Counted from the stretch's first letter, positions 1-61,672 are shown. The stretch is 64,000 nucleotides of DNA from Elusimicrobiota bacterium (GCA_052034625.1 JBPOII010000005.1:6417-70416), one strand, 5' to 3'. Notes: generated by a model not told the origin, from the sequence alone. Made by a program: numbers and translations.

Positions 1-3000
1 GAACATTTTTGAAAAAAACTTATTATAATCACTCCTTATTTCCATGTCATCTATTCCCGACATCATCTTTGCCAGATAAACATCAATTGACTCCCCGTTA
101 TTGAGCATAGTATAGGGGATCATAATATGATTCATAAAATCTATTTTAAATTTTTTGCCATCATAATTTTCTATAAAGTTTTTTAAGGCAATTATATATG
201 ATGAGAACTCTTCCATCTTTCTATCATCCATAGAGATCGATAAAAGTCCTGAAAAAGTTGAAACCTGATCACTGTGTTCACCTTTTTGTTGCAATATATT
301 CTCTAAAGTGTCTTTCAAAATAATATTGTGGACTTTTTCAAGATCTAAGGTTTTATATACTTTATTTAAAAGACTTTGTCCGGGTCTTTCTTCACCTATT
401 TTCCCGGCAATAAATACCGGCAGGTTCTGAGAACGGATTTGATCATAATCCGAATCGGCACTTAAAAGAGTAATATCACCTGTTTGCTTTAATGCTCCAA
501 AATAAAGATAAGAAGGGTCAGCAATTATTATATTGCCTTTTTTAGAAGAATTTTGAATCAGACTTACAGCATTTAATAATGAGAGTTCAAGCGGTGTTGT
601 AGGCTCATTATTAATTTTAAAATCTATACTGTCGGTAATATCTTTATAGTTTAGTCCGTCAATATTCAAAACGACTGCTTCTGTTTCAGAAAGTCCTTTT
701 TCGACAAGATCAGGATATTTAAGTGCATATTCTTCAGAATTCATATAATAAAACACATCCATAAGAGCATTTCCGTCTCCATGGTTTCTATTTATTATAA
801 ACTCTATCTTTGTGTTTTTTAAGTTTCCGTTTTGCATTATTCGTTCCATCAATTTTTTTATATCATTAATTCCTTCATTGTCTGAATTGACAGAAACAAA
901 AACTATATCAGGAACCGGGCCTGAAGCACTTTGCGTGATTTCTAATATTCTGTTTTCAATTATATCGCTTCTAAATGGTTTAAACAGTTCAAGTTTTTCG
1001 CCTTTTTTTAATTTTCTTTTGATTATATTTTTATGTATTTTGGTATGGAGAAGTCCATAAACGATAGGGATCCAGTGCATAGAAAACAAAATCCCTAATC
1101 CTGAAATAAAAGCTACTAAAAATTGAAACGGATCTGTATATGCTCCGCTTACTATAACTTTCCTGACAAAAAACAATAGTGGGAATGTTCTCGTAAGCAT
1201 TTTTCTTATTTTCCAGAATTCATTTATACCGATATAATGTTTTTTTGGATTCCTTTTGGAATCAAAATATTTTTTTGAAAACTCCATTATTTTATATTCA
1301 TCGTATAAACCAGGAATCAAAAAATTCCCTGACTTTATCAAATTTGACAAAGAACCAAAAAAACCTTTTTCCGAAGCATAAATACCGAAGTTTATTCCAA
1401 GAATAGTTCTTACAAGAGGCATTATTTTGAAGGTTTCAAGAAAATATAATGGAGCACCTTCAGATATCCTGTATCCATTAAGAATATCAGCATTTAAAGC
1501 ATAGCTTAACATTTTGTAATATGATTGAGCATATTCTCCGGCTTCTTCAAAACTTCTTATCTCTAATTCAGCTTTATTTGTTTCTATTTCTGGCATTGTG
1601 TTTATTTTATCTATTGTGGCATTGTATAGAAGCATAAAATCTTGTAATATAGTTATTACTCTTTCCTTGTTTTCTGAACTAAATGAACTTTCCGAAAAGA
1701 CAGTTGTTTTTATTATTTGTAAAGCATACTTCCTTATTATTTCAATTTTATTAATATCCATATCACCGGACTTTAAAACACTCTCCCACTTTTTTAAATA
1801 TTCTTGTGATGATTCAACAATGTTTTGTTTAGCAAGCGTGTGTTGTTGTGTAGTTTTGGTGTAAATTTTTGCTGGGAGAAAAGAATTTAGCGTATCAAGA
1901 CCGGTTTTTAATGAAGCTTCTGGCAGTTTATTTGAAATGTCGTTAATACCGCTGTTTATATTATAAAATATTTTTTTATCTCTTGTTTTCTTATATCTTT
2001 TAATTAGAGCTATTATTTTCTTTGTTTCATTTTTTAAGCCTTTATTTTCATCTGTAATTTTTCTTAATTCCGTCATAATTGCATCAAGTAAATTATCTTC
2101 ATCTGACATATAGTAAAGATTATTAAAATATTCTTTATTTTCGCGAGAAAGTCTCTTTAAATTCTGCTTGTAAAAAGAATTGCGTTTTCCAAGAAAGATC
2201 ATAGTTCTGTGTAAAAATATAGATAAACCAAGCCCTGTAAAAAAAGAAAATAGAACCGCACCTATCACATTTGACTGGGCTAGAAGAGTCCAGTTGCCTT
2301 GCACATTGAAATAAGCAACAGCAAATGAAGATATGACTGACTGTACTGCCATAAAAATAGAAAGTATCCTTTGTATCGCTTTTCTGTCAGTCCATCTTTT
2401 TTCAATACCTAAGTATGTTTTTTCGGAAGGATTTGCCTTTTCGTCTATAAACTCATTTACTCCGTTTAAAAGAGTATCATAATCATACATTGAAGAACTT
2501 ATATTATTTCCCAGAATATAAAGCTTGTAAGCCTGCTTTCTAAGTTTATTTTTTTCTTTGTGGAAGTTTGCATGCATACCAAAAATTCTTCTGTTGAAAG
2601 GCATTATTTTAAGTCTTTCGAATATAGAGGATTTTGGAAATATATAACCGCCTAAAATTGAAATATTTTCAAATGAATCTATTGTATTTAAATATTCAAG
2701 CGAATAATACTCAAGGGCTATATAAAGTTTTTTAATGTTATCAAGTTCTTGTTTTAGAGATTGCGGGATATTCTCATTCTCGTTTAAATATTTATTTATA
2801 CGGGATATATTCTCTGAGCTTTTTTGAACTATACTTTTATATATTTTGGACATATTAACTCTTTCTTTATCATAACGAACTCTTTCAAGCCTTGTATCCA
2901 ATACTTGTTGAAAAAGTTCGTTATATTCATCTTTTAACGAACTGCTGAGTTCATTATCAATTGCAGTAATCGGGATAGAAGGTAAATTCCGCTCCTTTTC

Positions 3001-5889: not shown

Positions 5890-5976
5890 CTTAGTAAACA
5901 CCTCTTTTTTTATAATATTGTAAAAAAGATTTATTAAGAGGTTATAAATAATTTGTTAGAAATAAGTTAAGATTTT

Positions 5977-19165: not shown

Positions 19166-20710
19166 CTACTGATTTTTTTCGAAAGATTCGACGAAACTAT
19201 CCATCTTTTTCTGCACATCTCTAAACGAATCTTCTGTTACAATTTCATAATTTTCAGCTTGTTTGTTCTTTTTATATATATTTATATTAAAGTGAAGTTT
19301 TCCTGAGCGTTTCTCTACACTTCCTGAAATAATCATATCAGCATTTGAATCTTTCCATATTTCTTTAGCTGACTTTTCATCAAGAGCTCCGACAACAGGT
19401 GAAATGCGGTTGATTTCAAACTTATCCAAAACCTTGGAACTTCCGTTTTCGGTAATTGATTTCCTTAGAATCTGAGTGAAAGCATTTACTTCACTTTCTG
19501 GCAATTTGTCAGAGTGGAGATCCATAACTGCAACAATTCCGGTCTTTTCTTTTACCTGAATAATTTCATCCTCTTCCTCATAAACACCGGATCTAAACCC
19601 ATAGCGTTCAAAATCATCGTTTTCTTCTTCGCCGACCGCTGGAGTTTCATTTTGGACGCTCTTTACCTGCAGCACAATACTTTCTGCTACGGGTAAAGGC
19701 TTAGAAATTTCCTCTCTCTCTTTTGATTTTTCTTTAATTTCTTTTTCGGGTTTTTCTTCATTTACGGCATAGCCGAACTTAATGCCGAGAGAAGCTCTGT
19801 GAGATTCGCCAAGATCACCGCTTGGAGAAAATGTATAATCAAAAGTCCAATCTTTGAATCTTGCACCAAAGCCGGCATTTATGCCGCCAAAACCGGGAAC
19901 ATTTTTCTGTTTGCCGTCATAACCTAACCTTAAACTTATATTTGTTTCTTCATTAGCTTTTAGCTCGTATTCTGCACCCATAGTAGGAAAAACATCATTA
20001 TCGGAAGGAAAATTTATATCCGCTGAAAGCAAAAAAGCATCAAAAAACCGTTTTGAAGCTCCAAACTTAAACATTACAGGAAGCGATTCACTTTCTCTAT
20101 TGTATTTTATATCAGTACCGACATTTTGGAGAACAGCTCCGAAAGAAGTAGTTTCATCATTTAAAGTGTAAATTGCTCCGATATCAAATGCCGCAGCTGA
20201 AGCTGAAGCTGATATTATAGAATAAATATATTTAAAGCTCGCACCATAGTCAATTATTCCGTATTCTTCTACAAACACACTTCCGGCATATGATAAATAG
20301 ACAGCAAACTCATACGGCGAAAAAGTATTCCCCGTAAAATTCCCCAAACTGTCAGTCTCATCAATATCCCCGTATGAAAGATGTTGTATAGCAATACCGA
20401 AAACACCGTATTCAGGAGTAGGCAAAGCAAATGATGCCCACTTATAAGCAATATCTTCAAAAGATGATGAATACATAAAAGAAATTTCTTTTTTTAATAT
20501 GGTGGCAAGCCCTGCCGGGTTCCAGTACATCATATCGGAAGCACCATCAGTAACAGAAGTATAAGCATTACCCATACCTATTGCCCTTGCGCCTACAGGC
20601 ATTTTAAGAAAAGCCGCTGCCCTCGTACCAACATCCGATCTTGAAAAAGCCGATTCGGCAATTATAGGAACCGTTAAGCAAATGATAAGAGACAGCAGTA
20701 ATTTTTTCAT
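19166..20710 (-). CDS. outer-membrane beta-barrel protein (PorV/UPF0164-like) with acidic linker and C-terminal soluble domain
   Basis: The likely start is MKKLLLSLIICLTVPIIAESAFS (ATG 20710, ATGA overlap with the upstream stop). GARAIGMGNAYTSV motif and alternating beta-strand pattern ending ...SLGIKFGY. A Glu/Lys-rich linker follows, then a ~150 aa domain (GIVAVMDLHSDKL...). Confidence 0.7.
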   Translation of the reverse strand: MKKLLLSLIICLTVPIIAESAFSRSDVGTRAAAFLKMPVGARAIGMGNAYTSVTDGASDMMYWNPAGLATILKKEISFMYSSSFEDIAYKWASFALPTPEYGVFGIAIQHLSYGDIDETDSLGNFTGNTFSPYEFAVYLSYAGSVFVEEYGIIDYGASFKYIYSIISASASAAAFDIGAIYTLNDETTSFGAVLQNVGTDIKYNRESESLPVMFKFGASKRFFDAFLLSADINFPSDNDVFPTMGAEYELKANEETNISLRLGYDGKQKNVPGFGGINAGFGARFKDWTFDYTFSPSGDLGESHRASLGIKFGYAVNEEKPEKEIKEKSKEREEISKPLPVAESIVLQVKSVQNETPAVGEEENDDFERYGFRSGVYEEEDEIIQVKEKTGIVAVMDLHSDKLPESEVNAFTQILRKSITENGSSKVLDKFEINRISPVVGALDEKSAKEIWKDSNADMIISGSVEKRSGKLHFNINIYKKNKQAENYEIVTEDSFRDVQKKMDSFVESFEKNQ

Positions 20711-21165
20711 CTTTTTATAAGCTCCGAATTTATTTTTATTATGCATTTCTTTACCGGAGAATTTCCGCATAAAGGAGCATGGGCATCTTCCGGAAAAAAT
20801 AAAGAAAAATGCCTTTCATTAAGCCTTATATTAAAATCAGGTTTGTCATTATAGAATGCAATATCTTTTTTTTGATTATAATCAATATAGATATCCTTAC
20901 AATCAATTAGGCTTTTCCATCCGATTATGTCATAACCATCAATAATATACTGTAAATCTATATATTTTCTATGGACTTCAAGCTTTTGGTCATTTCTGGG
21001 TTTAGGCAACGAAGTTTCAACAATTGCATACATATCATCGCTGATTTGATATTTTTTTTCTGAAGATAATTTATTTATATTATCCTTAATAAAATTATGA
21101 GCTTTCTCAAGAGAAGAAAGGTTATTAAAATACAAACCTATATTTTTTATATTGTCTGTAATCAT
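20707..21165 (-). CDS. YhcH/YjgK/YiaL (DUF386) family protein
   Basis: 152 aa. EVHRKYIDLQYIIDGYDIIGW and FSLFFPEDAHAP match the family hallmark. Confidence 0.85.
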   Translation of the reverse strand: MITDNIKNIGLYFNNLSSLEKAHNFIKDNINKLSSEKKYQISDDMYAIVETSLPKPRNDQKLEVHRKYIDLQYIIDGYDIIGWKSLIDCKDIYIDYNQKKDIAFYNDKPDFNIRLNERHFSLFFPEDAHAPLCGNSPVKKCIIKINSELIKR

Positions 21166-40415: not shown

Positions 40416-40424
40416 TTCTTATTA

Positions 40425-40765
40425 TTTAAGACGGGCTATACACCGGATTCTGTCTTTTAAGAAGCGTGCTTCATAAAAGTGCGATCATTTCTCTGCCGTC
40501 AAGATCACTCTTAACGGTCAAGCGGTCAAACTTCAACCTTGCTTTCCAGTAAGGGTTTAGCCGTTTCACCTTTTGCATTACTGCAAAAGCTTATCCTTTT
40601 TCAAGGATACTTTTACCGTTTCCGGTAAAAGCGTCTCTGCTCGCACCTCTGACCTTGCGGCCGACAGGGATTACCTGCTACCGTTCTCCGCAGACAGCAA
40701 GCTGTCTGTGGTAAAGTCCGGACTTTCCTCTCCGCATTGCGGAGCGATCGCGAGCCCGTCTATGG
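40425..40765 (-). ncRNA. rnpB: RNase P RNA, bacterial type A
   Basis: Minus strand begins AGACGGGCU...GAGAGGAAAGUCCGGACU (CR-I), contains AAGGUGAAACGG (CR-II/III-like) and ends ...ACAGAAUCCGGUGUAUAGCCCGUCU (CR-V, with P1 pairing to the 5' end). It forms a GC-rich island in an AT-rich genome. Ends are +/- 5 nt. Confidence 0.9.
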
Positions 40766-41473: not shown

Positions 41474-41555
41474 TTATACCTCTTATTTATTTCGGCAGAT
41501 AAGGGATTTATGATCGCCGTCATTATATTAAGTAAATATTAAACATTTATTTAAA

Positions 41556-41627
41556 TGGGTAGTGCAGGGTTTGAACCTGCGGCCACTCGCGTGTGAGGCG
41601 AGTACTCTTCCGCTGAGCTAACTACCC
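41556..41627 (-). tRNA. tRNA-Val (CAC)
   Basis: 72-nt cloverleaf GGGTAGT TA GCTC..GAGT A CTCGC CTCACAC GCGAG .. GCAGG TTCAAAC CCTGC ACTACCC A. CCA is not encoded. Confidence 0.92.
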
Positions 41628-41641
41628 AACGAATACTAATT

Positions 41642-41714: not shown

Positions 41715-41788
41715 TGGGCCTGGTAGGACTTGAACCTACGACCATTCGATTATGAGTCGAGTGCTCTAACCAACTGAGCTACAGGCCC
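41715..41788 (-). tRNA. tRNA with CAU anticodon, elongator type; leans tRNA-Ile2 (lysidine) over tRNA-Met
   Basis: 74-nt cloverleaf GGGCCTG TA GCTC AGTTGGTTA GAGC A CTCGA CTCATAA TCGAA TGGTC GTAGG TTCAAGT CCTAC CAGGCCC A. The anticodon arm CGACTCATAATCG and the C4:G69/C5:G68 pairs resemble ileX-type tRNAs. Confidence 0.9.
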
Positions 41789-41838: not shown

Positions 41839-42708
41839 CTATTTTTCCACAGCTATTCTTTTAATATAGTCAGCATACGGAGCACCTTCTGCGAGATCTA
41901 ACAACTCTTTTTTTGTAATATAGCCATTTCTATAGGCTATCTCTTCAAGACAACTTATCATAAAACCTTGTCTTTCTTCAATAGTTTTTATAAATAAAGA
42001 GGCGTCAAGAAGCGATTCATATGTTCCGGCATCAAGCCAGCTAAAACCTCTGCCTAAAAGTGCAACATTCAGTTTATTTTTTTTAAGATACTCAGCGTTC
42101 ACATCGGTAATTTCCAATTCCCCTCTTTGAGAAGGTTTTACATTCTTTGCTATTTCAATCGCATCGTTATCATAAAAATAAAGCCCTGTAACAGCCCAAT
42201 TGGATTTCGGTTTTTTCGGTTTTTCTTCTATTGAAACAGCTTTATTGTTCTTATCAAGTTCAACTATACCATACCTTTGAGGATCTTTTACATAATATCC
42301 AAATATTGTCGCACCATCCTGTCTGAGAGCGGCATCAGTCATTATCTTTGAAAGTCCGTGTCCGTAAAATATATTATCGCCGAGTATTAAAGCTATATTA
42401 TCCTCGCCTATGAAAGATTCTCCTATAATAAGTGCCTCGGCAAGTCCGCCGGGTTTTTCCTGAAGTGCATATTCAATATTCAATCCCAGATTTTTGCCAT
42501 CACCAAAAAGTTTTTTTAACTGAGGGAGGGTTTCTTCATTGGAAATTATCAGTATATCCCTTATTCCTGCAAGCATAAGCGTTGAAAGAGGATAGTATAC
42601 CATCGGTTTATTGAAAACGGGAAGCAATTGTTTGCTTACAACTTTTGTTATCGGATAAAGCCTTGTGGCTTTTCCGCCTGCAAGAATAATTCCTTTTGTC
42701 TTTTTCAT
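41839..42708 (-). CDS. rfbA: glucose-1-phosphate thymidylyltransferase
   Basis: The likely start is [21 protein letters not shown] (ATG 42708). Full-length RmlA pattern includes [33 protein letters not shown] and ELEITD. Confidence 0.95.
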
Positions 42709-42743
42709 TATGATATCCCCATTCATTGATATTGTTTTGATTA

Positions 42744-43946
42744 TTATATCATACTTTGACCGGAAGTATATTCTCTTTCGGTTTCATCTTGATCCTTACC
42801 ATATGGAACAAGATGGGCTGCCCATCCGCCTTTTCTTGAATCCAGGTATGCATCTATAGGATTATTTTTATCATTGACAGCCAGAAACATATTCAAGGCA
42901 ATATTTCCGGCAATAAATCCGACTATCACCGTAGCAACAATTTTTGGAACTTTTGAATACAATTTAATTGAGAATACTGCAAACTGTTTTGCAATAAGTG
43001 TCTTGAAAGGAATTGCAACTGAAAGATTCGGATAACCTGTATTCTTTCCTTTCTTATCAGGGAACATCGTACCTTTAGTATTATATATTGATGCTGCTGA
43101 GCGCACAATAATAACAGGCTTTCTTATCCCGAGAAGATTTCCAAACAAAGGAGTATATCTATTTTCATTATTTAAAAGATTTTCATCTGATAAATTGACC
43201 TTTATCTTTTGTTTGTATATATCTTCCGTTGAAATATACCAAGATGTATCTGATTTGGCATATACCTTTCTGTTTAAGAAAAGAATACTTTTAAGTTTTT
43301 CCAACAGCTTATTCGATGAATCCGGATCGGTATCATCAAAATCAAATATATCTGAACTTTGATTGAAAACAAAATGCAGACCATTAAAATCACCGTTATA
43401 AGTATATAAGTATTTTATCCCATTATCATTTCTCTCAAGTCCAAAAATCCTTTGGGCATTAGCAATTGTAGGCAATGCTGCAGGACTTACAATGAGGCTA
43501 TATCCTTTTAGATTATATTCAGCTATTAATGTATCAACATAAGTTAAATGCGAGATCAAAGCGATATCTTGAGCTTTTTTGAGAGCCTCAACAATTTCTT
43601 TCATCCTTTTTACCGATGAATATTCTCTGCTCCAGGATCTTGAAATATCACCAGTCGGATAAGCCGCTATAATATCGGTATTAAATGAAGGCATCTGAAT
43701 AAAAAAAGGATCCGTTCCAAGTGCAAGCGTTATGCCCATAATATAATTTAAACCGGCTACTAAATTCATTGTACGGGCTTTATGTGTAGCGATTGATAAA
43801 GCTATATTATCGACAGCATTTTGCATGTTCATTCTATCTCTTATAATCTTTGCAATGTTTAACATCATCGCCCAGCTTAAAACAAGAATAAGCGTAAATA
43901 TCATAAAATAATACAGCGTTTGTCCTCGATTATTATTTACTGTCAT
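42744..43946 (-). CDS. TadG-like pseudopilin / pilus-associated protein
   Basis: 400 aa. N-terminal NNRG|[15 protein letters not shown] hydrophobic segment, then [26 protein letters not shown] resembling the Tad_N (TadE/G-like) motif. ATGA overlap with the upstream gene. Confidence 0.6.
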
Positions 43947-44599
43947 TCTTCATCCTCAAAATTTCTGGCTCCAGGATAGGCCTTATTATAATAAGCAGAA
44001 TCCGGAGACGGGACCATTCTGCTTCTTGCCGACTGATATCTGCGGCTCCCCGATTTTCCAAGGATTTTATCTGTCATTTCTCTGCGGGATGTTTTTTTTA
44101 CTACAAGAGAACCAAACATCACTCTTGTAAAATAATAAATTTTTACAGTATGGTCTGTAAGCACATTATTTGAATAATCATAGGTTTTCCTGCTTGCAGT
44201 TACAGGTTTATGCATCGTTACAAAACTATCGCTGTCATCAGAAGAAACAGATTCTTCTTCATTATTATCTTCACTCTCATTTTTTCTGTTAAAAAAAGTT
44301 CCCACGGTTGAAGAGTTTGAAAACCCAAAACTCCCTAACATTCGTGAAGTTGTTTCACTTACCGTAAAAGGATAGAAATTAACAAGATATTTTTTTACTC
44401 TGTTTTTTGCTTCATTAAACTTTGCTTCGCCGCCGCCGGTAACAGCAGCCGAACGCATAGCTGTAAAAGCGGCTTCATTTGCAGTCATGTCATCTACGGC
44501 GATTATGCATATCTGTAAAAAAGCGAACATTATTATTGTAGTAAAGGCCACAACAAATAAAGCTTCTATAAGAGATTGTCCTCTTGGCTTTTTTATCAT
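43943..44599 (-). CDS. TadE-like pseudopilin
   Basis: 218 aa. Leader MIKKPRG|QSLIEALFVVAFTTIIMFAF has Glu at +5 of the putative prepilin cleavage site. ATGA overlap with the upstream gene. Confidence 0.6.
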   Translation of the reverse strand: MIKKPRGQSLIEALFVVAFTTIIMFAFLQICIIAVDDMTANEAAFTAMRSAAVTGGGEAKFNEAKNRVKKYLVNFYPFTVSETTSRMLGSFGFSNSSTVGTFFNRKNESEDNNEEESVSSDDSDSFVTMHKPVTASRKTYDYSNNVLTDHTVKIYYFTRVMFGSLVVKKTSRREMTDKILGKSGSRRYQSARSRMVPSPDSAYYNKAYPGARNFEDEE

Positions 44600-44793
44600 T
44601 TCACATAACTCCTGTCGACAACTCCGGAAACATTTACAATAGTATTTCCGGCACCGGAAATTGCCGCGGTCTTTTCATAGCGTTTTTTCCATGAGGCTTT
44701 ATACATTGTCCAGATCCCGCTTGTTGCCGCAAGTAATACGACAAGCACAAGCAAAAACTCGACAAAAGTCTGTCCATTATTTCTTTTGTCCAT
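44596..44793 (-). CDS. short Flp/type IV-like pilin (class III signal peptide)
   Basis: 65 aa. MDKRNNG|QTFVEFLLVLVVLLAATSGIW has G at -1, E at +5 and a hydrophobic helix. The predicted mature product is about 58 aa. Confidence 0.6.
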   Translation of the reverse strand: MDKRNNGQTFVEFLLVLVVLLAATSGIWTMYKASWKKRYEKTAAISGAGNTIVNVSGVVDRSYVK

Positions 44794-44804
44794 AATTTTG
44801 TTTT

Positions 44805-45500
44805 TTATTCTATTAATTTTGTAGTAACAAAAATCAGAACATTAGTTTTTGTATCATAGTGTTTTGTCAGGCTGAATAATGCGCCAAGGATCGGGATATC
44901 ACATAAAACAGGTATTCCTTCAACTGTTTTCCCTTTAGTCGTTTCAATAAGTCCGGCTAAAACCATAGTTTCGCCGTTCTTTATCTGAAGATGTGAAGAT
45001 GCCTGTCTTTTAGCTATAGAAGGATATCCTGCTACGGGAGCATTATAGTCAAGCCTTGAAAGTTCAGTTTCAAGAACTATGTCTATTTCTTCGTCTTTCT
45101 GTACAGTCGGGGTAATTTTCATTATTATCCCGAATTCTTTCCATTCTATTTTAGAAGTTCCTACAGCAGTCGCTACTACAGGAAATTCTCCGCCAACCAT
45201 AAATTTGGCTGTTGTGCCTGATTTTGTAACTAATTTGGGTTTTGATAAGACTTTTGCGGCGCCATTTGTTTCGAGGGTTTTCAATGTTGTGGTAAATGCA
45301 GTGATCCTTTCCCATGCGCCGGATTCGATTATCGATGGAATCGTTGATTCTACGGCAGATATTTCCGTAGGCCATTCTATGCCGAGTTCCAAAGATTTAT
45401 TTTCGTTTACTTCCGTTATTTCAACGGAAATCTCGATCATTTTTTCTGAGTATACCAAAGATGCAAAAAATAAAAACGGGATAAAAAGTAGTTTTCTCAT
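44805..45500 (-). CDS. minimal secretin (secretin C-domain only, CpaC/RcpA/GspD-related)
   Basis: 231 aa. Signal peptide MRKLLFIPFLFFASLVYS. Secretin-domain signatures LETNGAAKVLSKPKLVTKSGTTAKFMVGGEFP, IKNGETMVLAGLI, VEGIPVLCDIPILGALF and NVLIFVTTKLI. No room for N0/N1 or BON domains. ATGA overlap with the gcvT stop. Confidence 0.7.
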   Translation of the reverse strand: MRKLLFIPFLFFASLVYSEKMIEISVEITEVNENKSLELGIEWPTEISAVESTIPSIIESGAWERITAFTTTLKTLETNGAAKVLSKPKLVTKSGTTAKFMVGGEFPVVATAVGTSKIEWKEFGIIMKITPTVQKDEEIDIVLETELSRLDYNAPVAGYPSIAKRQASSHLQIKNGETMVLAGLIETTKGKTVEGIPVLCDIPILGALFSLTKHYDTKTNVLIFVTTKLIE

Positions 45501-46561
45501 TTTGCTCTCTTATAAAATGGTTTTGGTACTTCTTTAATTTTCCTCCTATTATTATGAATTTCCGCTTCAAGTTCCACAGCTTCTATTTCCGCATCGACCA
45601 AAGCCATTCCTATAGCTTTTTTTAATGTGGGAGAAAAAGAACCGCTGGTAACATAGCCGACCTTTTTATCATTTAAATAAAGCACATTGCCATTCCTTGC
45701 TATACCTTGAAGACATTCAAAAGCTATGATCTTCTTTGAAGGATTGTCCTTAAACGGCAAAAGCTTTTCTTTACCTATAAAATCATTTTCCCATTTAATA
45801 GTTTTTTTGAAACCTGCGTCTATCGGATTTATATTTTCGTCAATTTCATGTCCATGCAAAGGCATACAAGCTTCAAGACGTAAAGTGTCACGGCAGCCAA
45901 GCCCGCAGGGTTTAACTCCGGCTTCCATAAGTTTTTTCCAAATCTTATTTGTCTGCTCTCTCGATATAAAAATTTCAAAACCGTCTTCACCGGTATATCC
46001 TGTTCTTGCTATTCTGCAAAATTGCGCATTGATGTCTTTCAGCTTAAGTTCTTCACAGGTAAAATATTTCATACTTTTAATATCGGTTTCGGAAAGATTT
46101 TGTATAACCTCAACGGCTTTAGGTCCCTGAACAGCTAAAAGAGAAATATCGGCACTTCTGTTCTCTAAAATTATATTTTCCGGCTTATGTGCATTCAGCC
46201 AAGCCCAATCTTTATCAAGATTCCCGGCATTGACAACCATCATATATTCGCCGCAGAAATTATAAACTATTATATCGTCTTTAATGCCGCCTTCATCATT
46301 AAGGATCATTGAGTATCTTGCTTTTTTATCCGGTAAGCCAGAATAATTGCCGAGAGTTACAAAGTTTAAAAAGCTCACAACACTCTCCCCTTTAATTATA
46401 AATGTTCCCATATGGGATGTGTCGAAAACGCCGGCTGCATTTCTTACGGCATTATGCTCTTCAATAATTGAAGTATACTGGACAGGCATATCCCAGCCGC
46501 CAAATTCCGTAAACTTAGCACCAAGCTTTAAATGCTCGTCGTAGAGATAAGTCCTTTTCAT
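45497..46561 (-). CDS. gcvT: glycine cleavage system aminomethyltransferase (T protein)
   Basis: 354 aa. FGGWDMPVQY, GVFDTSHMG, ARTGYTGEDGFEI and GLGCRDTLRLE motifs. Confidence 0.95.
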   Translation of the reverse strand: MKRTYLYDEHLKLGAKFTEFGGWDMPVQYTSIIEEHNAVRNAAGVFDTSHMGTFIIKGESVVSFLNFVTLGNYSGLPDKKARYSMILNDEGGIKDDIIVYNFCGEYMMVVNAGNLDKDWAWLNAHKPENIILENRSADISLLAVQGPKAVEVIQNLSETDIKSMKYFTCEELKLKDINAQFCRIARTGYTGEDGFEIFISREQTNKIWKKLMEAGVKPCGLGCRDTLRLEACMPLHGHEIDENINPIDAGFKKTIKWENDFIGKEKLLPFKDNPSKKIIAFECLQGIARNGNVLYLNDKKVGYVTSGSFSPTLKKAIGMALVDAEIEAVELEAEIHNNRRKIKEVPKPFYKRAK

Positions 46562-46598: not shown

Positions 46599-47924
46599 TT
46601 ATTTCTTTTTCATTATTTCAGTACATTTTCCGAAAGCATCCTCATAAGCATTTAAAAGTCCTTCGCTTATAGACGGATGGAATAAAGATTCTCTGGCTAT
46701 ATGATTAATTCCATTTGTTAATATCATTGAAGCGGTATTTATAATTTCATCGGCATTTGTGCCTACCATCCAGAAAGCCAAAGGTTTTTTTGTATTTTTG
46801 TCAGCCGCACACTTTATAAAGCCTGTTCTCTCCCCTTCAATAAAAGCCCTTCCGCTTGCAGTAAGAGGAAATATTCCATAGACAATATTTTCATCATCTT
46901 TAAATCCGGAAACTTTAACTGAAGCACTTTGAGGCATAGAAAAAACCGCCTGCGGTACAATTTTATTATCAATAATAACTGTATTTCCTTTAAAAGCATT
47001 TTCAGCGGCTGCCGCACCTTCATTTTGTGCCGTATATGCAAGAAGGCTTCCTTTTGTTGTATCTCCTACTGCATAAATATTTTCAACATTTGTTTGGCAA
47101 TATTTATTCACTTTTATAAAGCCGTTTGAAAAAGCATCAATGCCTGCATTTTCAAGATTAAGGTCTTTTGCGGGTATCCTTCCCGTAACAATCAGAGCTT
47201 TCTGAAATTTAGGTATATCATTTAAAGCACTTTTATAATCCACAAGTATTTCTATACCCTGCCTGCTCATATTTTTCATAATCTCGTTTGATATTTCCGC
47301 ATCTTCGGAAGGAAGAAGCCTGTCAAAACTTTCTGCAATAGTAACTTTACTGCCAAAACCGGCAAAAATAGTAGCCATTTCAACACCGATAGCGCCGCCA
47401 CCAATTATTAAAAGCGTCTCCGGCACATATTCAAGATTTAAAGCATCTGTAGAATTTATTATTTTCTCACCGTCATATTCATAACCGGGTATTTTATGAG
47501 GCTCGGAACCTGAAGCTATTATAATTTTATCAGCTTTTATATGTGTATCTGTTCCGATAAGAAGTGTATTTTTATCTTTAAAAGAAGCCGCTCCAGAAAT
47601 TACGGGTATTTCATAAGAAGAAAGTATCATTTCCATGCCTTTTCTTATATTGGCTATCCTTTTATTTTTTTGGATAACAATATTAGCATATTGAATAGCC
47701 CCAAGACTTGCTTCTAAACCGTATTCATAAGCTTTTTTTATTTTTAATTTTGTTTTCAGCACTTGCCACATAAATTTTGTAGGTATACAGCCGCAATTGA
47801 GGCAAGTTCCGCCAACAAAACCTTTCTCAATAATAACAGTCTTTGCCCCAAGCTGTGCCGCTCTTACAGCCGCCGCAAAACCGCCGGGACCTGAACCGAT
47901 AACTGCTATATCATATTTTTCCAT
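46599..47924 (-). CDS. lpdA: dihydrolipoyl dehydrogenase
   Basis: The likely start is MEKYDIAVIGSGPGG (ATG 47924). Redox-active GGTCLNCGCIPTK, a second dinucleotide fold IIGGGAIGVE and C-terminal HPSISE. Confidence 0.92.
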   Translation of the reverse strand: MEKYDIAVIGSGPGGFAAAVRAAQLGAKTVIIEKGFVGGTCLNCGCIPTKFMWQVLKTKLKIKKAYEYGLEASLGAIQYANIVIQKNKRIANIRKGMEMILSSYEIPVISGAASFKDKNTLLIGTDTHIKADKIIIASGSEPHKIPGYEYDGEKIINSTDALNLEYVPETLLIIGGGAIGVEMATIFAGFGSKVTIAESFDRLLPSEDAEISNEIMKNMSRQGIEILVDYKSALNDIPKFQKALIVTGRIPAKDLNLENAGIDAFSNGFIKVNKYCQTNVENIYAVGDTTKGSLLAYTAQNEGAAAAENAFKGNTVIIDNKIVPQAVFSMPQSASVKVSGFKDDENIVYGIFPLTASGRAFIEGERTGFIKCAADKNTKKPLAFWMVGTNADEIINTASMILTNGINHIARESLFHPSISEGLLNAYEDAFGKCTEIMKKK

Positions 47925-47995
47925 TAAGTCCTTCCGCATTCATAAAAAACTGCAATTTTATTTTTTACATTAAAATCTTATTGGATCTACTGAAA

Positions 47996-49705
47996 TTATC
48001 TGCCGTAAATTTTCAATATTTCGCTGACAGCCTCTTCAGGCTTTAATAGTTTTATGCCTTCTTTTCCGTCTTTTCTGGCTTTAAATTCAACATTGCCATT
48101 AGCAAGATTTTTCTCGCCTATAGTAATTCTATATGGTATGCCTATAAGGTCGGCATCTTTAAATTTTATTCCTGCTCTTTCATCTCTGTCATCTATAAGA
48201 ACATCAAGTCCTTTTGCTTTAAGTGCAGAATATATTTTTTCAGTTGCTTCTTTTGTTTTTTCATCAGCAAAATTTATAGGCACGATTATTACTTCATAGG
48301 GTGCAATATTGTCCGGCCATATTATACCGTTCTCATCATGAGATTGCTCTATGGTCGCGGCAAGTATCCTTGTAACGCCGATACCGTAACAGCCCATAAC
48401 TATAAGATTCTCTTTACCGTTAGTATCAAGATATGTTGCATTCATAGATTTTGAATATTTTGTTCCGAGTTTAAATATATGTCCTATCTCTATACCTCTT
48501 GAAAATTTCAATTTTTCTTTTTTGCACCTGGGGCAAATGTCGCCGTGCATTACTTTTCTTATATCGGCAACTATATCAGCTTTATAATCTCTTCCATAGT
48601 TGACATTTTTTATATGAAAATCTTTTTTATTGGCACCTGTTACGGCATTTACTATGCCGGGAACAGAGAGATCTGCAACTATTTTTATATTTTTAAGTCC
48701 CATTGGACCGGCAAAACCTACGGGAGCACCGGTTATCTTTTTTATTGTCTCTTCATCAGCTAAAACTGCTTCATTGGCGCCAAGAAGGCTTTGTAATTTG
48801 ATCTCATTAATTTCATTATCGCCTTTTACAAGAACAATAACAGTTTTTCCGTCTACAAGATATATCATTGTTTTAATAAAATTTTCCGGCGAAGATTTCA
48901 TAAACGAGGCAACTTCTTCAACGGAACATTGGCCGGGAGTGGAAACTTCTTCCATAGGAAGAGCGGCTTCATCTTTTTTTTCATCGTTCGCAAAGCACTC
49001 AGCTTTTTCGCTGTTTGCACCATATCCACAATTACACCACGCTATTTCTTCTTCGCCAGTTTCTGCTAGAACCATAAATTCATGCGAGAACGAGCCGCCT
49101 ATAGCACCCGAGGCGGCTTCAACAGCACGGAATTCAAACCCGCATCTTTTACATACATTTGAATATGCCTGATACATTTTTCCATAGTATTTTTCAAGAT
49201 CTGTTTCATCAACATGGAAAGAGTAACCGTCTTTCATCAAAAACTCTCTTGAACGCATAATGCCAAATCTCGGACGTATCTCATCTCTGAATTTAGTTCC
49301 GAATTGATAAAGCATTATAGGAAGCTGTTTATAAGATTTAACATCCTTTCTGACAAGATCTGTAATTCCTTCTTCAGCAGTAGGCGCAAGACAGAACTCA
49401 GCATCTTTTCTGTCTTTAAGTCTGAAAAGTTCTTTCCCATAAACATTCCATCTTCCGGTCTCTATCCACAGATCTTTAGGAAATAACAGAGGAAGAGAAA
49501 CTTCCTGACCATCAGCTGCGTCCATTTCTTCACGGATTATATTCTCGACTTTTTTCAAAACTTTCAAACCCAAGGGTAAGAATTCATAAAGTCCTGAGGC
49601 TACTTTACGTATCATTCCCGCTCTTATCATAAGCTTTGCAGAAACAATATCCGCATCAGCCGGAGCTTCTCTAAGTGTTGGTGCATACATTTTTGAAAAA
49701 TACAT
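47996..49705 (-). CDS. proS: prolyl-tRNA synthetase, bacterial type with INS editing domain
   Basis: 569 aa. Class II motifs (FRDEIRPRFGIMRSREF, GCYGIGVTR), a central insertion and a C-terminal anticodon-binding domain. Confidence 0.96.
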   Translation of the reverse strand: MYFSKMYAPTLREAPADADIVSAKLMIRAGMIRKVASGLYEFLPLGLKVLKKVENIIREEMDAADGQEVSLPLLFPKDLWIETGRWNVYGKELFRLKDRKDAEFCLAPTAEEGITDLVRKDVKSYKQLPIMLYQFGTKFRDEIRPRFGIMRSREFLMKDGYSFHVDETDLEKYYGKMYQAYSNVCKRCGFEFRAVEAASGAIGGSFSHEFMVLAETGEEEIAWCNCGYGANSEKAECFANDEKKDEAALPMEEVSTPGQCSVEEVASFMKSSPENFIKTMIYLVDGKTVIVLVKGDNEINEIKLQSLLGANEAVLADEETIKKITGAPVGFAGPMGLKNIKIVADLSVPGIVNAVTGANKKDFHIKNVNYGRDYKADIVADIRKVMHGDICPRCKKEKLKFSRGIEIGHIFKLGTKYSKSMNATYLDTNGKENLIVMGCYGIGVTRILAATIEQSHDENGIIWPDNIAPYEVIIVPINFADEKTKEATEKIYSALKAKGLDVLIDDRDERAGIKFKDADLIGIPYRITIGEKNLANGNVEFKARKDGKEGIKLLKPEEAVSEILKIYGR

Positions 49706-58309: not shown

Positions 58310-59920
58310 TTATAATATTTTTTTCAGCCACTGCAGGACTTCGGGATTAATGTATGACATTGCCAGCAGTCCTTTTGAAATAGTTATTATAATACTAAAG
58401 ATAATGCTTAGGAAAATAAGAAGCATAATAAAATATCTCCAAAAATATCCAATAACACCTTCATGTCTCTCATTCCAGTAAAATATCATAACAAAAGCCG
58501 GAATTATAAAATACATCGCAAAATCTGCTATATACCTTAATATTCCACCCGCAATGGAAACAACAGAAATAACCATAATACCTGACAGGATTATCATCGC
58601 AGTATATTTTTTTATTTCCACGGATATTTTTTTTGAAGTAAAAAAACCATAACTGCCTATCGCAATAAACAAGAGATACGGAGCCGTATACAAAAGCCCT
58701 ACTAAAGGCTCAATCAGATTTTCTGCGATCACAATTTTACCTGCTAAATAATAAGGGAAAGTGTTAATTGATATCGGAGGAAAAAACAAAAACAGTCGGA
58801 CCGTATAAAAGGAGTCGGCCAAATTAAACTTTCTATTATAGACATCTATCAAGGTCAGTTGAAATTTATGTCCGAATTCAAAGAAAGAATCAAAGCGAAG
58901 ATAATTATATATCATCAAAACAATAGCAAATACTATTAAAGGGATAAAGTAATACAAATATTGAGTATAGTTTTTTTTAATAGTTTTAAAATCAAAAACT
59001 AAAGGTATTTGAAACAAAACTATCAATGCATAAAAAGGTCTACAACCTACGGAAAGGGCTATTGAAAGACCGGCTGCAAACAAGAAAAACCTTTTTTTTA
59101 CGGCACTTTCCGCTTCACTGTAAAAAAGAAGCATCAAAAATGAAAGCAAAACAAAAAAGAGCCCGACTATTATCGCAACTTCATAAACCCTTGGAAGCGT
59201 TATAAGATATCCAAAAGCAGATGAGAACCCTACAGCAAGTATGGTAAGAACGATAAGCAGAAAATCTTTGTTTTTTGAGATAGTATCCAGAATTTTTTTT
59301 AAGATCATAAGCGAAACAAGAAAAGAGAGAATTGAAAAAGCTAGGACGACAAGGGAATCAGTTATAAAATATTTTGTCAGAATATTAAACGGCAGATATA
59401 CTATAAGAATCGGGGTGATTCCAAAATACAAATAATATTTATCTTTATAAAAACTCAAGTCTAGTATATAATCAAATTTTTCTAAGGAAAGTTTATTGTT
59501 TAACTCAGCACTGTCATACGGATTATCCAATGCTTTGAGTTTTTCAGAAGGTTCTATTAAAAAACTAACCTTGCCTTTTTTCAGGGAAGCAGTCATAAAA
59601 TTATAATAATTCCATCCTGTATAATTTACTATAGCAGGATCCTTATCAGGTAGTATCATCCCAGGATAAAAACCAGAAAAAGATATGAAAATATAAAAAA
59701 AGATAACAGATAATATAGGTATGCCTATTAAAATTTTTCTTATATTTAATCTATCTTTAAATATAAAAAAAAGACAGTACAGCAGTGTAATGAATATTGT
59801 TATATAAATTATAAGCTTAAGCAAATTAGAATATACAATATAAGAAGTGAAAGCTGCCAGAAAAAAAAGCAGAAGCTGCGAATGTCGTGTGATAATATTC
59901 TTTATTTTATTATTTATCAT
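58310..59920 (-). CDS. polytopic membrane protein, possible GT-C-fold glycosyltransferase
   Basis: 536 aa with at least 12 hydrophobic helices. DLSFYKDKYYLYFGITP resembles the D..(Y/F).GK.Y..(K/F)(P/G)P loop motif of ArnT/PMT-like enzymes. The assignment is tentative. Confidence 0.4.
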   Translation of the reverse strand: MINNKIKNIITRHSQLLLFFLAAFTSYIVYSNLLKLIIYITIFITLLYCLFFIFKDRLNIRKILIGIPILSVIFFYIFISFSGFYPGMILPDKDPAIVNYTGWNYYNFMTASLKKGKVSFLIEPSEKLKALDNPYDSAELNNKLSLEKFDYILDLSFYKDKYYLYFGITPILIVYLPFNILTKYFITDSLVVLAFSILSFLVSLMILKKILDTISKNKDFLLIVLTILAVGFSSAFGYLITLPRVYEVAIIVGLFFVLLSFLMLLFYSEAESAVKKRFFLFAAGLSIALSVGCRPFYALIVLFQIPLVFDFKTIKKNYTQYLYYFIPLIVFAIVLMIYNYLRFDSFFEFGHKFQLTLIDVYNRKFNLADSFYTVRLFLFFPPISINTFPYYLAGKIVIAENLIEPLVGLLYTAPYLLFIAIGSYGFFTSKKISVEIKKYTAMIILSGIMVISVVSIAGGILRYIADFAMYFIIPAFVMIFYWNERHEGVIGYFWRYFIMLLIFLSIIFSIIITISKGLLAMSYINPEVLQWLKKIL

Positions 59921-60031: not shown

Positions 60032-61672
60032 TTATCTATCTAAACTATTATTTTTGACGGATAAAAAAACAGTTACCTGAGTTTTTGCAAAAAATGGTTT
60101 CAGGTCTGAATAGTTCGATTTTTTGAGAACAGCACGGATGCTGTCTATCGCGGCAGCGCTTGTGGCGTAGTTGACCAAGAATATTATCTCGTCCCGAACA
60201 ATATCTTTTTGTTGCAAAATCATATTAAGTTCTCTTTCGGGTTCTTTGTCTAAGATTATAAAATTTTCCATTTGTGATAAATCATAAACAAACCCTGAAA
60301 ATCTTAAAAGCGCATATGAGTCAGGGTTGTCATTTATGCCGATCACGAGTGCGTTCTTATACTCTGTGATAGAAGGATCATCAGTATAAAGCCATATAAT
60401 ATCCCTATTTTCAAAAAACGGGGCCGCAGTAAAAACTATTATCAAGGCAACAAGAATAAACTTCTTTTTTAGATTTTTTGAAAAAAAGAAATTGACGAAC
60501 TCACTAATTAAAAATATAAAACAAATTGCTGCTATGGGATAAGCCGGCCATAAATATCTTGTATCATACCAGTTCCGGTAAACAAGGAATTGCCAGCTTA
60601 TAAATATAAATAAAATACCTATAAAAGGGATTGTTGTAAAAAAATTTAATTTCACAATATACTTTTTATCTATAAGGTACTTTATGCACAAAAAGATAAT
60701 AAATGCCAAAACAGCCCAAAAAACAATCTTGCCCGCAGCCCCTCCGACAGTTTGTAACAGCCAAACTGATAAAGATACATATGCATTTTTCAAAATTTCA
60801 TCAAATACAAATATCTTGCGATACCCTATCATATTACTGGTAAACAATCCATAAATAATTTTGATTATAGTTGGATAGCACAAACAAGCTGTTAGAAACG
60901 ATGCAAGCACAGACAAGAGAGATTTCAATAAATCTTTATATCTTTTTTCTATCAAAAGAAATATAAAAAAACAAAATAAGACCATTACCGTAAAAATAAA
61001 AAAATAATAGTGGGTAAGAATACCGCAAAAGATGGTAAAATACAGAAGAAATAAATCAGTATTGCTCATACTTTTTTTGTATGCTGCCCTAAAAACACAA
61101 AATGTCAGCAAAACAAAAACACAGGCAAGAAATGCATAAGGTCTGAAAATTAAAACACTATTTATTGCTCCCGTCGAAAATCCCCATAAAACATTAACAA
61201 GCAAAGCTTGATACCGATCAAATATAAAACAAGAAGCATTATACAGCAGTATGCTTGTAAGAATAAAAAAAAGAAGATTTAACAAAACTCCGGGATATAT
61301 ACTAAAATTATCTGAAAAGAAAGAGTAAACAGCATAGCTGATATGAACTGAAAAGAAGTATGCAGGAACATGCATCTTATCTGAAAGTAAATTTCTTTTT
61401 ACAAAACCGAATTTAAAACGTTCACCATCATCTACAGTAATAGCTGATTTTAAATCTTTTCCTGAATAAAATCTGCCGACTTCCAAAAATTCCAAATAAT
61501 TTGTCTGAGTCATTTCAGAATTGTTCGCAGTCAAAAGAGTTCCGATTTCATCCATATAAAAATTCTTTTTTTTGTCTGCATAATAAAAAACAAGAAGACT
61601 TTGGGCTAAAATTATAAAAGTAAGCAATACTGCAGGAGTAAAAAAACGAATATTTTTAAAACTTTTAATCAT
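60032..61672 (-). CDS. polytopic membrane protein, probable GT-C-fold (ArnT/PMT-like) glycosyltransferase
   Basis: 546 aa. An acidic DE motif (FYMDEIGT) follows TM1 directly, about 12 TMs are predicted, and a soluble C-terminal ~110 aa domain is present. The start overlaps the murA stop by 8 nt. Confidence 0.45.
   Translation of the reverse strand: MIKSFKNIRFFTPAVLLTFIILAQSLLVFYYADKKKNFYMDEIGTLLTANNSEMTQTNYLEFLEVGRFYSGKDLKSAITVDDGERFKFGFVKRNLLSDKMHVPAYFFSVHISYAVYSFFSDNFSIYPGVLLNLLFFILTSILLYNASCFIFDRYQALLVNVLWGFSTGAINSVLIFRPYAFLACVFVLLTFCVFRAAYKKSMSNTDLFLLYFTIFCGILTHYYFFIFTVMVLFCFFIFLLIEKRYKDLLKSLLSVLASFLTACLCYPTIIKIIYGLFTSNMIGYRKIFVFDEILKNAYVSLSVWLLQTVGGAAGKIVFWAVLAFIIFLCIKYLIDKKYIVKLNFFTTIPFIGILFIFISWQFLVYRNWYDTRYLWPAYPIAAICFIFLISEFVNFFFSKNLKKKFILVALIIVFTAAPFFENRDIIWLYTDDPSITEYKNALVIGINDNPDSYALLRFSGFVYDLSQMENFIILDKEPERELNMILQQKDIVRDEIIFLVNYATSAAAIDSIRAVLKKSNYSDLKPFFAKTQVTVFLSVKNNSLDR

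Follow-up and report, generated by a model that had tools for sequence, protein, structure and literature searches.

A core-only secretin and three pilin-like proteins encoded behind gcvT are probably one half of a split Tad pilus system in Endomicrobiia

We analysed a 64,000-nucleotide stretch of DNA from an Elusimicrobiota bacterium (GCA_052034625.1, JBPOII010000005.1:6417-70416; hereafter the window, whose coordinates are used unless another locus or contig is named) in which four consecutive minus-strand genes follow gcvT between positions 45,500 and 42,744. These genes, which we term the cassette, encode a 231-amino-acid (aa) protein made up of a signal peptide and the core of a secretin, together with three pilin-like proteins that we call p65, p218 and p400. 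We consider it probable that the cassette is the half of a Tad (type IVc) pilus system that holds the secretin and pilin-like proteins, and that in Endomicrobiia this system is divided between two loci. The cassette and the gene in front of it comprise the following features:

46561..45497, minus strand: gcvT (aminomethyltransferase), 354 aa; GCV_T 8.9e-90, NCBIfam GcvT 420 bits against a cut-off of 300
45500..44805, minus strand: minimal Tad-type secretin, 231 aa; PF00263 1.1e-42
44793..44596, minus strand: p65, putative Flp-type pilin paralogue, 65 aa; leader and match of the p65 family to an Flp profile
44599..43943, minus strand: p218, putative TadE-like pseudopilin, 218 aa; leader and TadE matches of orthologs
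43946..42744, minus strand: p400, putative TadG-like pilin-like protein, 400 aa; leader and Tad matches of orthologs

The initial annotation had described the four genes as joined by ATGA overlaps or an 11-nt gap, with the first of them overlapping the gcvT stop codon, and the junction sequences agree with this description. ATGA overlaps were present at three junctions (gcvT/secretin, p65/p218 and p218/p400), 11 nt separate the secretin gene from p65, and 17 nt separate p400 from an rfbA-like gene downstream. All four cassette open reading frames (ORFs) are intact, and 231 aa is the maximum ORF length in the secretin frame. A gcvT-secretin fusion or a frameshift was rejected because the match of gcvT to its model is full-length and the secretin starts with a signal peptide of its own.

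The reading of the 231-aa protein as a signal peptide plus a secretin core was upheld. Pfam Secretin (PF00263) matched residues 76-230 at 1.1e-42, and with 146 bits against a cut-off of 27.5 the concern that the protein might escape secretin profiles fell away. No second Pfam domain was detected in it at E≤1, including none of the periplasmic N-domains looked for (N0-N3, AMIN and the RcpA N-domain PF13629). The NCBIfam models of GspD, PilQ and SctC match through their C-terminal cores only, and the SctC model aligns to residues 18-230, which is the entire mature protein. The Sec signal peptide MRKLLFIPFLFFASLVYS opens the sequence and is followed directly by the secretin core, with no C-terminal extension. 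By our reading, MIEISVEITEVNENKSLELGIEW, right after the signal peptide, would be the canonical first strand of the core, and the C-terminus VLIFVTTKLIE is the canonical last secretin strand.

The best sequence match in the PDB was the Tad secretin RcpA (8odn, 2.6e-25), and a PDB search with the family profile returned 8jvb (3.7e-35) and RcpA (6.9e-34). The profile aligned to 8jvb over positions 17-231; the canonical protein carries a 48-residue insertion after the first strand, and the region of that insertion is the sole variable, low-confidence region of the small secretin. In an AlphaFold2 monomer model (15 family members; predicted local distance difference test score, pLDDT, 67.6; predicted template modelling score, pTM, 0.58), the first barrel strand begins at residue 21. 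The best 40 Foldseek matches of this model in the PDB were all secretins (PilQ, GspD, RcpA, InvG and pIV), and comparison with solved secretin protomers gave a probability of 1.0 and template modelling (TM) scores of 0.38-0.47.

Because 47 columns of the secretin alignment are invariant, among members that are 53-80% identical, the family appears to be under constraint. The gate motif F-x-V-G-G-E-x-P (F100, V102, G103, G104, E105 and P107) and the amphipathic-loop motif GxPxLxxxPxxGxLF (G195, P197, L199, P203, G206, L208 and F209) are invariant in the 15 family members, and these positions align to FLAGGEFPI and PWLGDIPILGAFF of RcpA. Because both motifs are invariant, they argue for a working gated pore.

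Typical secretins had been stated to be much longer than this protein, and solved secretin chains in the PDB indeed have 387-901 residues. We obtained 227 secretin homologs at E≤1e-5; among the 120 matches listed, complete proteins have approximately 225-280 aa, and the named ones all belong to Endomicrobium, Endomicrobiellum or Elusimicrobiota, the protein of Endomicrobium proavitum being 79% identical. Because of this uniform origin of the named homologs, we assign the window to an uncultured Endomicrobium relative (Elusimicrobiota). Five more short secretins of 247-290 aa, from three named Elusimicrobiota loci and two unclassified contigs, contain the Secretin domain only; the same scan also returned Tad secretins from other phyla, which have 423-566 aa and carry PF13629 plus Secretin. 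Judged by length and domain content, core-only secretins of 231-290 aa recur across the sampled Elusimicrobiota Tad loci.

An exhaustive profile search of 1.84 billion representatives extended this picture: among the best 150 clusters, approximately 23 represent complete proteins no longer than 300 aa, and most of the others have 400-650 aa and a core that begins at residue 150-250. Taxonomy was recovered for one of ten further short-secretin clusters, and the loci L064, L087 and L088 are unclassified. L087 (GCA_964405835.1) encodes a 247-aa core-only secretin at 2094-2837, between a 66-aa ORF and tpiA-rpiB. It lies away from any Tad motor and represents another 'orphan' arrangement, behind different housekeeping genes.

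When the small secretin is compared with RcpA of P. aeruginosa (8odn, PMC10499894), the match spans the whole C-terminal secretin core, and the gate motif F-L/M-x-GGEFP and the amphipathic loop P-x-L-x-DIPILGxLF are shared. However, RcpA has 426 aa and comprises an N-domain (residues 28-112; PMC10499894), a linker and approximately 55 residues after the core, whereas the first barrel strand of the 231-aa protein lies approximately two residues past the signal peptide and the chain ends at the last strand. Pseudomonas RcpC docks on the N-domain of RcpA through a beta-hairpin that is needed for function (PMC12307814). Because the window secretin is without an N-domain, this contact cannot exist here. 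The Endomicrobium RcpC matched the solved RcpC 9gzr at E 0.019 and over the core only, a similarity too weak to judge the beta-hairpin. The secretin pIV of phage f1 (7ofh) likewise has a secretin core and is comparatively small, and its modelled part has 231 residues; however, pIV exceeds 400 aa (deposited chain 414), carries N-domains and matches at 5.5e-8, and the window offers no phage context. A phage origin of the secretin was rejected on account of this weak match, the housekeeping context and the synteny conserved in relatives.

The three proteins encoded behind the secretin gene begin with short leaders, each followed by a hydrophobic helix: MDKRNNG/QTFVEF in p65, MIKKPRG/QSLIEA in p218 and NNRG/QTLYYF in p400 (the slash follows the leader Gly). 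Among orthologous ORFs with a detected leader, Gln directly follows the leader Gly in 35/35 for p65, 52/54 for p218 and 49/51 for p400. The same G/Q leader is carried by Flp (KG/QGMVEY) and TadE (KG/QALVEA) of the Tad loci in relatives described below. The leaders are not a product of chance. Both p65 and p218 carry the G/XXXXE[YF]-type leader, the +5 residue of p400 is Y, and cleavage by a TadV/CpaA-type A24 peptidase is predicted. The initial annotation had called the leaders prepilin-type, which stands for the ortholog families, in which TadE, Tad and Flp profiles match, and less firmly for the window copies, which Pfam recognises weakly.

For p65 of the window, we found N_methyl (0.0068) and TadE (0.039) as well as weak ComGE and ComGD matches, and its orthologs gave weak matches to TadE, N_methyl and Class_IIIsignal. 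Flp_Fap (PF04964) matched none of 17 p65 orthologs, and hhalign of the p65 family against Elusimicrobiota Flp gave a probability of 97.1% (7e-11, 47 columns). The protein would work like an Flp paralogue, although the Pfam Flp model does not recognise the family; it could serve as a minor pilin or as a second major pilin. Pfam contributed nothing relevant for p218 of the window, including no match to TadE (PF07811), which is matched by 4/15 orthologs (best 2.8e-10). Alignment of the p218 family to TadE of the Tad loci in relatives reached a probability of 95% over the N-terminal 34 columns only. A C-terminal motif, RYQSAR-R-M--SPD--YY-KAYPGA, is also strongly conserved among the p218 orthologs and is absent from that TadE.

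The Tad domain (PF13400) matched p400 of the window at 0.033 (14.9 bits against a cut-off of 22.3) and 6/28 of its orthologs (best 7.3e-5), and two p400 homologs are named 'Tad domain-containing protein' by NCBI. An AlphaFold2 model of p400 (pLDDT 86.8, pTM 0.82) consists of an approximately 69-residue helix followed by a globular domain. The model had no structural match in the PDB with an E-value below 5, which leaves the fold of the globular domain unmatched, and neither a vWA nor any other Pfam domain was found beyond the N-terminus in p400 and its orthologs. The family is small, with 37 matches, and its named members all come from Endomicrobium, Endomicrobia or Elusimicrobiota. As descriptions of how the proteins probably work, the labels Flp-like, TadE-like and TadG-like seem reasonable, with formal family membership being partial, and together with the core-only secretin these identities agree with those proposed initially.

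The cassette had also been reported to lack motor genes and a prepilin peptidase in its vicinity. Consistent with this, the ORFs of 100 aa or more in the 64-kb window include no T2SSE ATPase, T2SSF platform protein or A24 peptidase, and no TadD-type pilotin gene adjoins the cassette. We used the Endomicrobium TadA sequence from the supplement of PMC8809381 as a query for CpaF and found homologs throughout Endomicrobia, E. proavitum included. On the E. proavitum chromosome (CP009498.1), the order TadE(PF07811)-Flp-u253-RcpC(PF16976)-CpaF-TadB-TadC-outer-membrane protein is encoded at approximately 545-551 kb, with no secretin or TadG-like gene in the locus. The cassette of this species lies at approximately 364 kb on the same chromosome, 184 kb from the CpaF locus. 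A second case is ENA contig k141_227954 (272 kb; L010), whose secretin is 84% identical to that of the window. Its main Tad locus, located within 94.7-116.7 kb, contains neither a secretin nor a TadG-like gene, its cassette is found within 193-201.7 kb, about 90 kb away, and an A24 peptidase and a PilT-like T2SSE ATPase are encoded approximately 9 kb from the main locus. A secretin is likewise missing from two other main loci of Endomicrobium, which read Flp-RcpC-CpaF-TadB-TadC.

Elusimicrobiota CpaF/TadA proteins have 660-750 aa, with an N-terminal extension of approximately 200-250 aa (L009:10001-12001, L010:10001-12004, L072:8662-10917). In L072 this extension starts with the ParA/TadZ-like P-loop IIAFSGPKEGAGRTT, which suggests a TadZ-CpaF fusion, and in Endomicrobium it looks degenerate. 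A beta-barrel-like outer-membrane protein of 430-500 aa is conserved after tadC in the Endomicrobium main loci (L009:13784-15082, L010:13796-15286); it contains the motif GMGGAFTAVADD and was annotated as 'TraF' in PMC8809381. A 534-aa protein of the window (19166-20770, minus strand) with weak YaiO and UPF0164 matches may be similar to this barrel.

A scan with the family alignment against one genome per GTDB species yielded 72 loci, which we mapped by BLASTP with proteins of the window and of E. proavitum. The order gcvT-secretin-p65-p218-p400 is kept in approximately 45 species of Endomicrobiia, whose sources include termite gut and rumen, and a core-only secretin with an intact signal peptide occurs in approximately 60 sampled Elusimicrobiota loci, down to 31-35% identity. 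Unlike in the window, orthologs of the secretin are encoded with Tad genes of the set rcpC/cpaB, cpaF/tadA and tadB/tadC in L042, L065, L066, L069, L070, L072, L074 and L088. The gene orders of seven of these loci are as follows (SEC, secretin gene):

L065, contiguous locus: SEC-p65-p218-p400-x-TadE-Flp-RcpC-CpaF-TadB
L042, contiguous locus: SEC-response regulator-p65-p218-p400-TadE-Flp-RcpC-x-CpaF
L066, contiguous locus: SEC-p218-x-TadE-RcpC-CpaF-TadB-TadC
L069, L070, L072 and L074 (Elusimicrobia class): RcpC-SEC(244-249 aa)-CpaF, continuing with TadB-TadC in L072 and L074

In L042, a 170-aa A24 peptidase (tadV) is encoded close upstream on the opposite strand, and x in L066 is a 358-aa ORF that has a TadG-like leader and no BLAST match to p400. 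The order RcpC-SEC-CpaF in the four loci of the Elusimicrobia class is that of classical tad/cpa loci, in which the secretin gene lies between rcpC and cpaF. Because TadE stays with the gcvT cassette in L014, L020, L021 and L032, the breakpoint between the two halves varies. The metagenome-assembled genome of Candidatus Parendomicrobium reticulitermitis Rs511_bin47 has two cassettes: L023 (SEC-p218-p400-rfbA), which has no gcvT upstream, and that of L065, which continues into a full Tad locus. The pair may have arisen by duplication or may represent an intermediate stage of the split.

Classical loci are arranged as flp-tadV-rcpCAB-tadZABCDEFG, or as cpaA-L in Caulobacter, and the two Endomicrobium loci summed amount to the classical set of Flp, TadE-like protein, TadG-like protein, RcpC, secretin, CpaF, TadB, TadC and A24 peptidase. 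In contrast to classical loci, however, the Endomicrobiia loci are split over approximately 90-184 kb, with the secretin and pilin-like genes in a housekeeping string behind gcvT; CpaF carries the N-terminal extension (TadZ-like in L072) in place of a separate tadZ, and no RcpB was seen.

Because secretin-less partner loci exist in relatives and both halves are contiguous in other Elusimicrobiota, we regard the cassette as half of a Tad system and not as an independent device. The suggestion that it is a satellite module serving a machine encoded elsewhere was thereby strengthened, whereas its status as an orphan does not extend beyond the window: a split Tad system takes its place. The other half, as seen in relatives, would supply the major pilin Flp, in some cases TadE, RcpC/CpaB, the long CpaF/TadA ATPase, TadB and TadC, and the A24 prepilin peptidase would be encoded separately. 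We infer that the two loci function together in three steps. The A24 peptidase would cleave all [KR]G/Q leaders; CpaF, TadB and TadC would then polymerise Flp, with the pilin-like proteins of the cassette acting as the primer; and the fibre would exit through a multimeric ring of the 231-aa secretin. Members of the secretin superfamily assemble into 12-15-mer gated double beta-barrels in the outer membrane. In this scheme, p65, p218 and p400 most likely form a minor-pilin priming or tip complex.

Several results weigh against this interpretation. The monomer model of the secretin is moderately confident (pLDDT 67.6), and p65, p218 and p400 of the window score below Pfam thresholds. In addition, p400 lacks a vWA domain, and its model matches no PDB structure with an E-value below 5; the label 'TadG-like' therefore derives from its N-terminal 40 residues and its gene position. 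Finally, the proposed search for tadA/cpaF and tadB/C succeeded in E. proavitum and relatives and did not succeed for the window organism, whose main Tad locus was not found via the CpaF clusters P0153 and P0140; we looked for samples shared with the contigs of the window, and the samples did not overlap. Both of these abundant Endomicrobium clusters nevertheless yielded a main locus without a secretin. Because of this, the co-occurrence of the two loci is taken from relatives.

We judge it unlikely that the cassette serves another type IV filament machine, i.e. a type IVa pilus or a competence or type II secretion system (T2SS)-like apparatus with PilB/PilC/PilD, such as a DNA-uptake pseudopilus. 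Stephens et al. placed a homolog of the secretin in a competence model under the label 'PilQ' and noted that every Endomicrobium symbiont they studied has kept pilD and type II/IV pilin genes (PMC8809381). The PilT-like ATPase and A24 peptidase close to the L010 Tad locus and the weak N_methyl, ComGE and ComGD matches of p65 point in the same direction. However, the cassette is contiguous with tadE-flp-rcpC-cpaF-tadB-tadC in several Elusimicrobiota, the secretin is nearest to RcpA-type secretins, and the Tad main loci carry no secretin of their own. Moreover, the leaders are of the Tad type G/Q...E[YFA], common to Flp and TadE, and not of the type G/F or G/M. Because DNA uptake could also be mediated by a Tad pilus, what the system does and which motor it uses are separate questions.

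A decaying remnant, in which a 5'-truncated secretin gene and non-functional pseudopilins persist behind gcvT, appears very improbable. Decay does occur in the group: Tad regions were reported as pseudogenised in Candidatus Endomicrobium trichonymphae Rs-D17 (PMC8809381). In Endomicrobium sp. Po218_bin4 (L082:7914-8431), three short ORFs of 72, 104 and 45 aa take the place of the small secretin, which looks like a pseudogene and would fit the Tad decay reported in some endosymbionts. In the window, by contrast, the four ORFs are intact with overlapping start and stop codons, and the core-only architecture recurs with its signal peptide across the approximately 60 loci noted above. Core-only copies also occupy the canonical rcpC-SEC-cpaF position, and the gate motif is among the 47 invariant columns of the alignment.

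That the four genes alone build an ATPase-independent minimal pore or pilus, acting as a passive outer-membrane channel or fibre, is hardly credible. The absence of motor genes from the 64-kb window and the tight packing and conservation of the four genes as a unit would fit such a device. However, prepilin-type proteins need an A24 peptidase as well as a platform protein and an ATPase for extraction from the inner membrane, as is general among type IV filaments, and relatives hold a complementary secretin-less motor locus while unsplit loci exist elsewhere. The self-sufficient pared-down pilus or secretion pore envisaged at first is thus not supported, and the split Tad system remains the interpretation that we follow.

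The initial annotation had also raised the question of whether the linkage to gcvT is conserved. We found gcvT-secretin adjacency in 48 related loci (a few of them redundant), and the gap is at most 3 nt in 33 of these. The 33 tight junctions consist of 17 ATGA/GTGA overlaps, two 1-nt overlaps, 10 stop codons followed by ATG and four gaps of 2-3 nt, and they span lineages whose secretins share only approximately 50% identity. The coupling is thus old and maintained within Endomicrobiia, and co-transcription of the cassette with gcvT is likely; the constitutive co-expression with core metabolism proposed initially would be a supposition drawn from the gene overlap. The adjacency is absent where the Tad locus is unsplit, and in our view it goes back to an ancestral rearrangement through which the module came to lie in a housekeeping operon. 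The breadth of the adjacency might suggest a functional tie of the outer-membrane channel to glycine and one-carbon metabolism, but such a metabolic connection is unsupported and highly improbable, given that unsplit Tad loci do not place the secretin next to gcvT, that we know of no biochemical link between the two, and that the pattern is explained by conserved hitch-hiking in an operon following a single ancestral rearrangement.

That Tad systems occur in Elusimicrobia, and that this gene has been labelled 'PilQ', is already published. In Candidatus Endomicrobium agilae TA21/TA26, the ortholog is the 240-aa 'PilQ' LE169_01960 (KEGG K02280; PMC8809381), which is 60% identical in our locus L034. 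Stephens et al. 2022 (PMC8809381) list this protein beside tadA, tadB and tadE in the shared category '4_TAs only'; all four have non-zero entries in columns that seem to give expression. The authors also describe a 'type IV Tad-like' region in Endomicrobium genomes and conclude that the systems look incomplete. They treat the protein as a generic PilQ for DNA uptake, and the text and tables consulted contain no remark on the loss of the N-domain, the three pilin-like genes or the gcvT linkage. None of the literature that we could search mentions the absence of N-domains, the three pilin-like genes next to the secretin, the arrangement in two loci or the coupling to gcvT, and for minimal, short or truncated secretins the search returned only engineered truncations and the hormone. 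What remains new is the widely conserved core-only Tad secretin and the change that it implies in the connection between the pore and the alignment complex.

The cassette is embedded in genes that we consider as context only:

49705..47996, minus strand: proS
46599..47939, minus strand: lpdA-like pyridine-nucleotide disulfide oxidoreductase; Pfam Pyr_redox_2 and Pyr_redox_dim
42726..41839, minus strand: rfbA-like nucleotidyltransferase; Pfam NTP_transferase

The lpdA-like gene lies upstream of gcvT, outside the pilus module, in a synteny kept in relatives, and the rfbA-like gene is a frequent downstream neighbour of the cassette there. Neither gcvH nor gcvP was seen anywhere in the 64-kb window, despite the adjacent lpdA-like gene and gcvT. 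A terminator scan found no minus-strand terminator-like site between proS and rfbA, and promoter-like sites around the block did not exceed the shuffled expectation in a promoter scan. G+C content is even over the block (0.32-0.39). The remaining window is housekeeping in character and comprises a dcw cluster, rpsB-tsf-pyrH-frr-uppS-cdsA-dxr-rseP-ispG-greA, glnA and a PhoH-like gene, plus two giant proteins.

Downstream of rfbA, the window encodes tRNA-Val(CAC) and tRNA-Met(CAT) (41555-41628 and 41715-41788, minus strand) and a class A RNase P RNA (40423-40763, minus strand; 110 bits). The best sigma-70-like matches of the region (11/12 positions) lie in front of both tRNAs. The first giant ORF (1-5955, minus strand) has at least 1985 aa, runs off the start of the window and has no Pfam match, and the second (9919-17064, minus strand; 2381 aa) has a calcineurin-like phosphoesterase as its sole match, at residues 1466-1573; both may be surface proteins. 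In E. proavitum, a 3281-aa OmpA-domain protein is encoded a few genes downstream of the cassette. Of two adjacent proteins of approximately 540 aa (58310-59920 and 60032-61672, minus strand), one matches PMT_2 (glycosyltransferase family 39-like) weakly and the other has no match; the two may be membrane glycosyltransferases and paralogues of each other.

For Elusimicrobiota, the split explains the apparently orphan secretin. Because the Tad genes are distributed over two loci, annotation must score both of them, as otherwise the system looks incomplete, which was the conclusion of earlier work on termite endosymbionts. The coupling to gcvT is a curiosity, and it offers a clean example of a surface-organelle module carried in a housekeeping operon.

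The N-domain of a secretin links the pore to the inner-membrane machine, and all structurally studied secretins that we know of (T2SS, type III secretion system, type IV pilus, Tad and phage) carry at least one periplasmic N-domain. To our knowledge, a mature core of approximately 212 residues would be the smallest natural secretin. Because the RcpC-binding N-domain of the Pseudomonas type is missing, the link between this secretin and the inner-membrane machine would, by analogy, have to differ or run via another protein. We see about even chances that the Tad outer-membrane channel of Elusimicrobiota consists of a core-only secretin of approximately 212 mature residues and that RcpC couples to it differently than in Pseudomonas. 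If this is true, a periplasmic N-domain is dispensable for assembling the ring, for gating and for insertion into the outer membrane, and RcpC coupling would occur via the barrel rim or via a lineage-specific cassette protein such as p400, or would be absent. A natural core-only secretin would then point to an alternative alignment of pore and motor and provide a compact model for the minimal needs of multimerisation, membrane insertion and gating.

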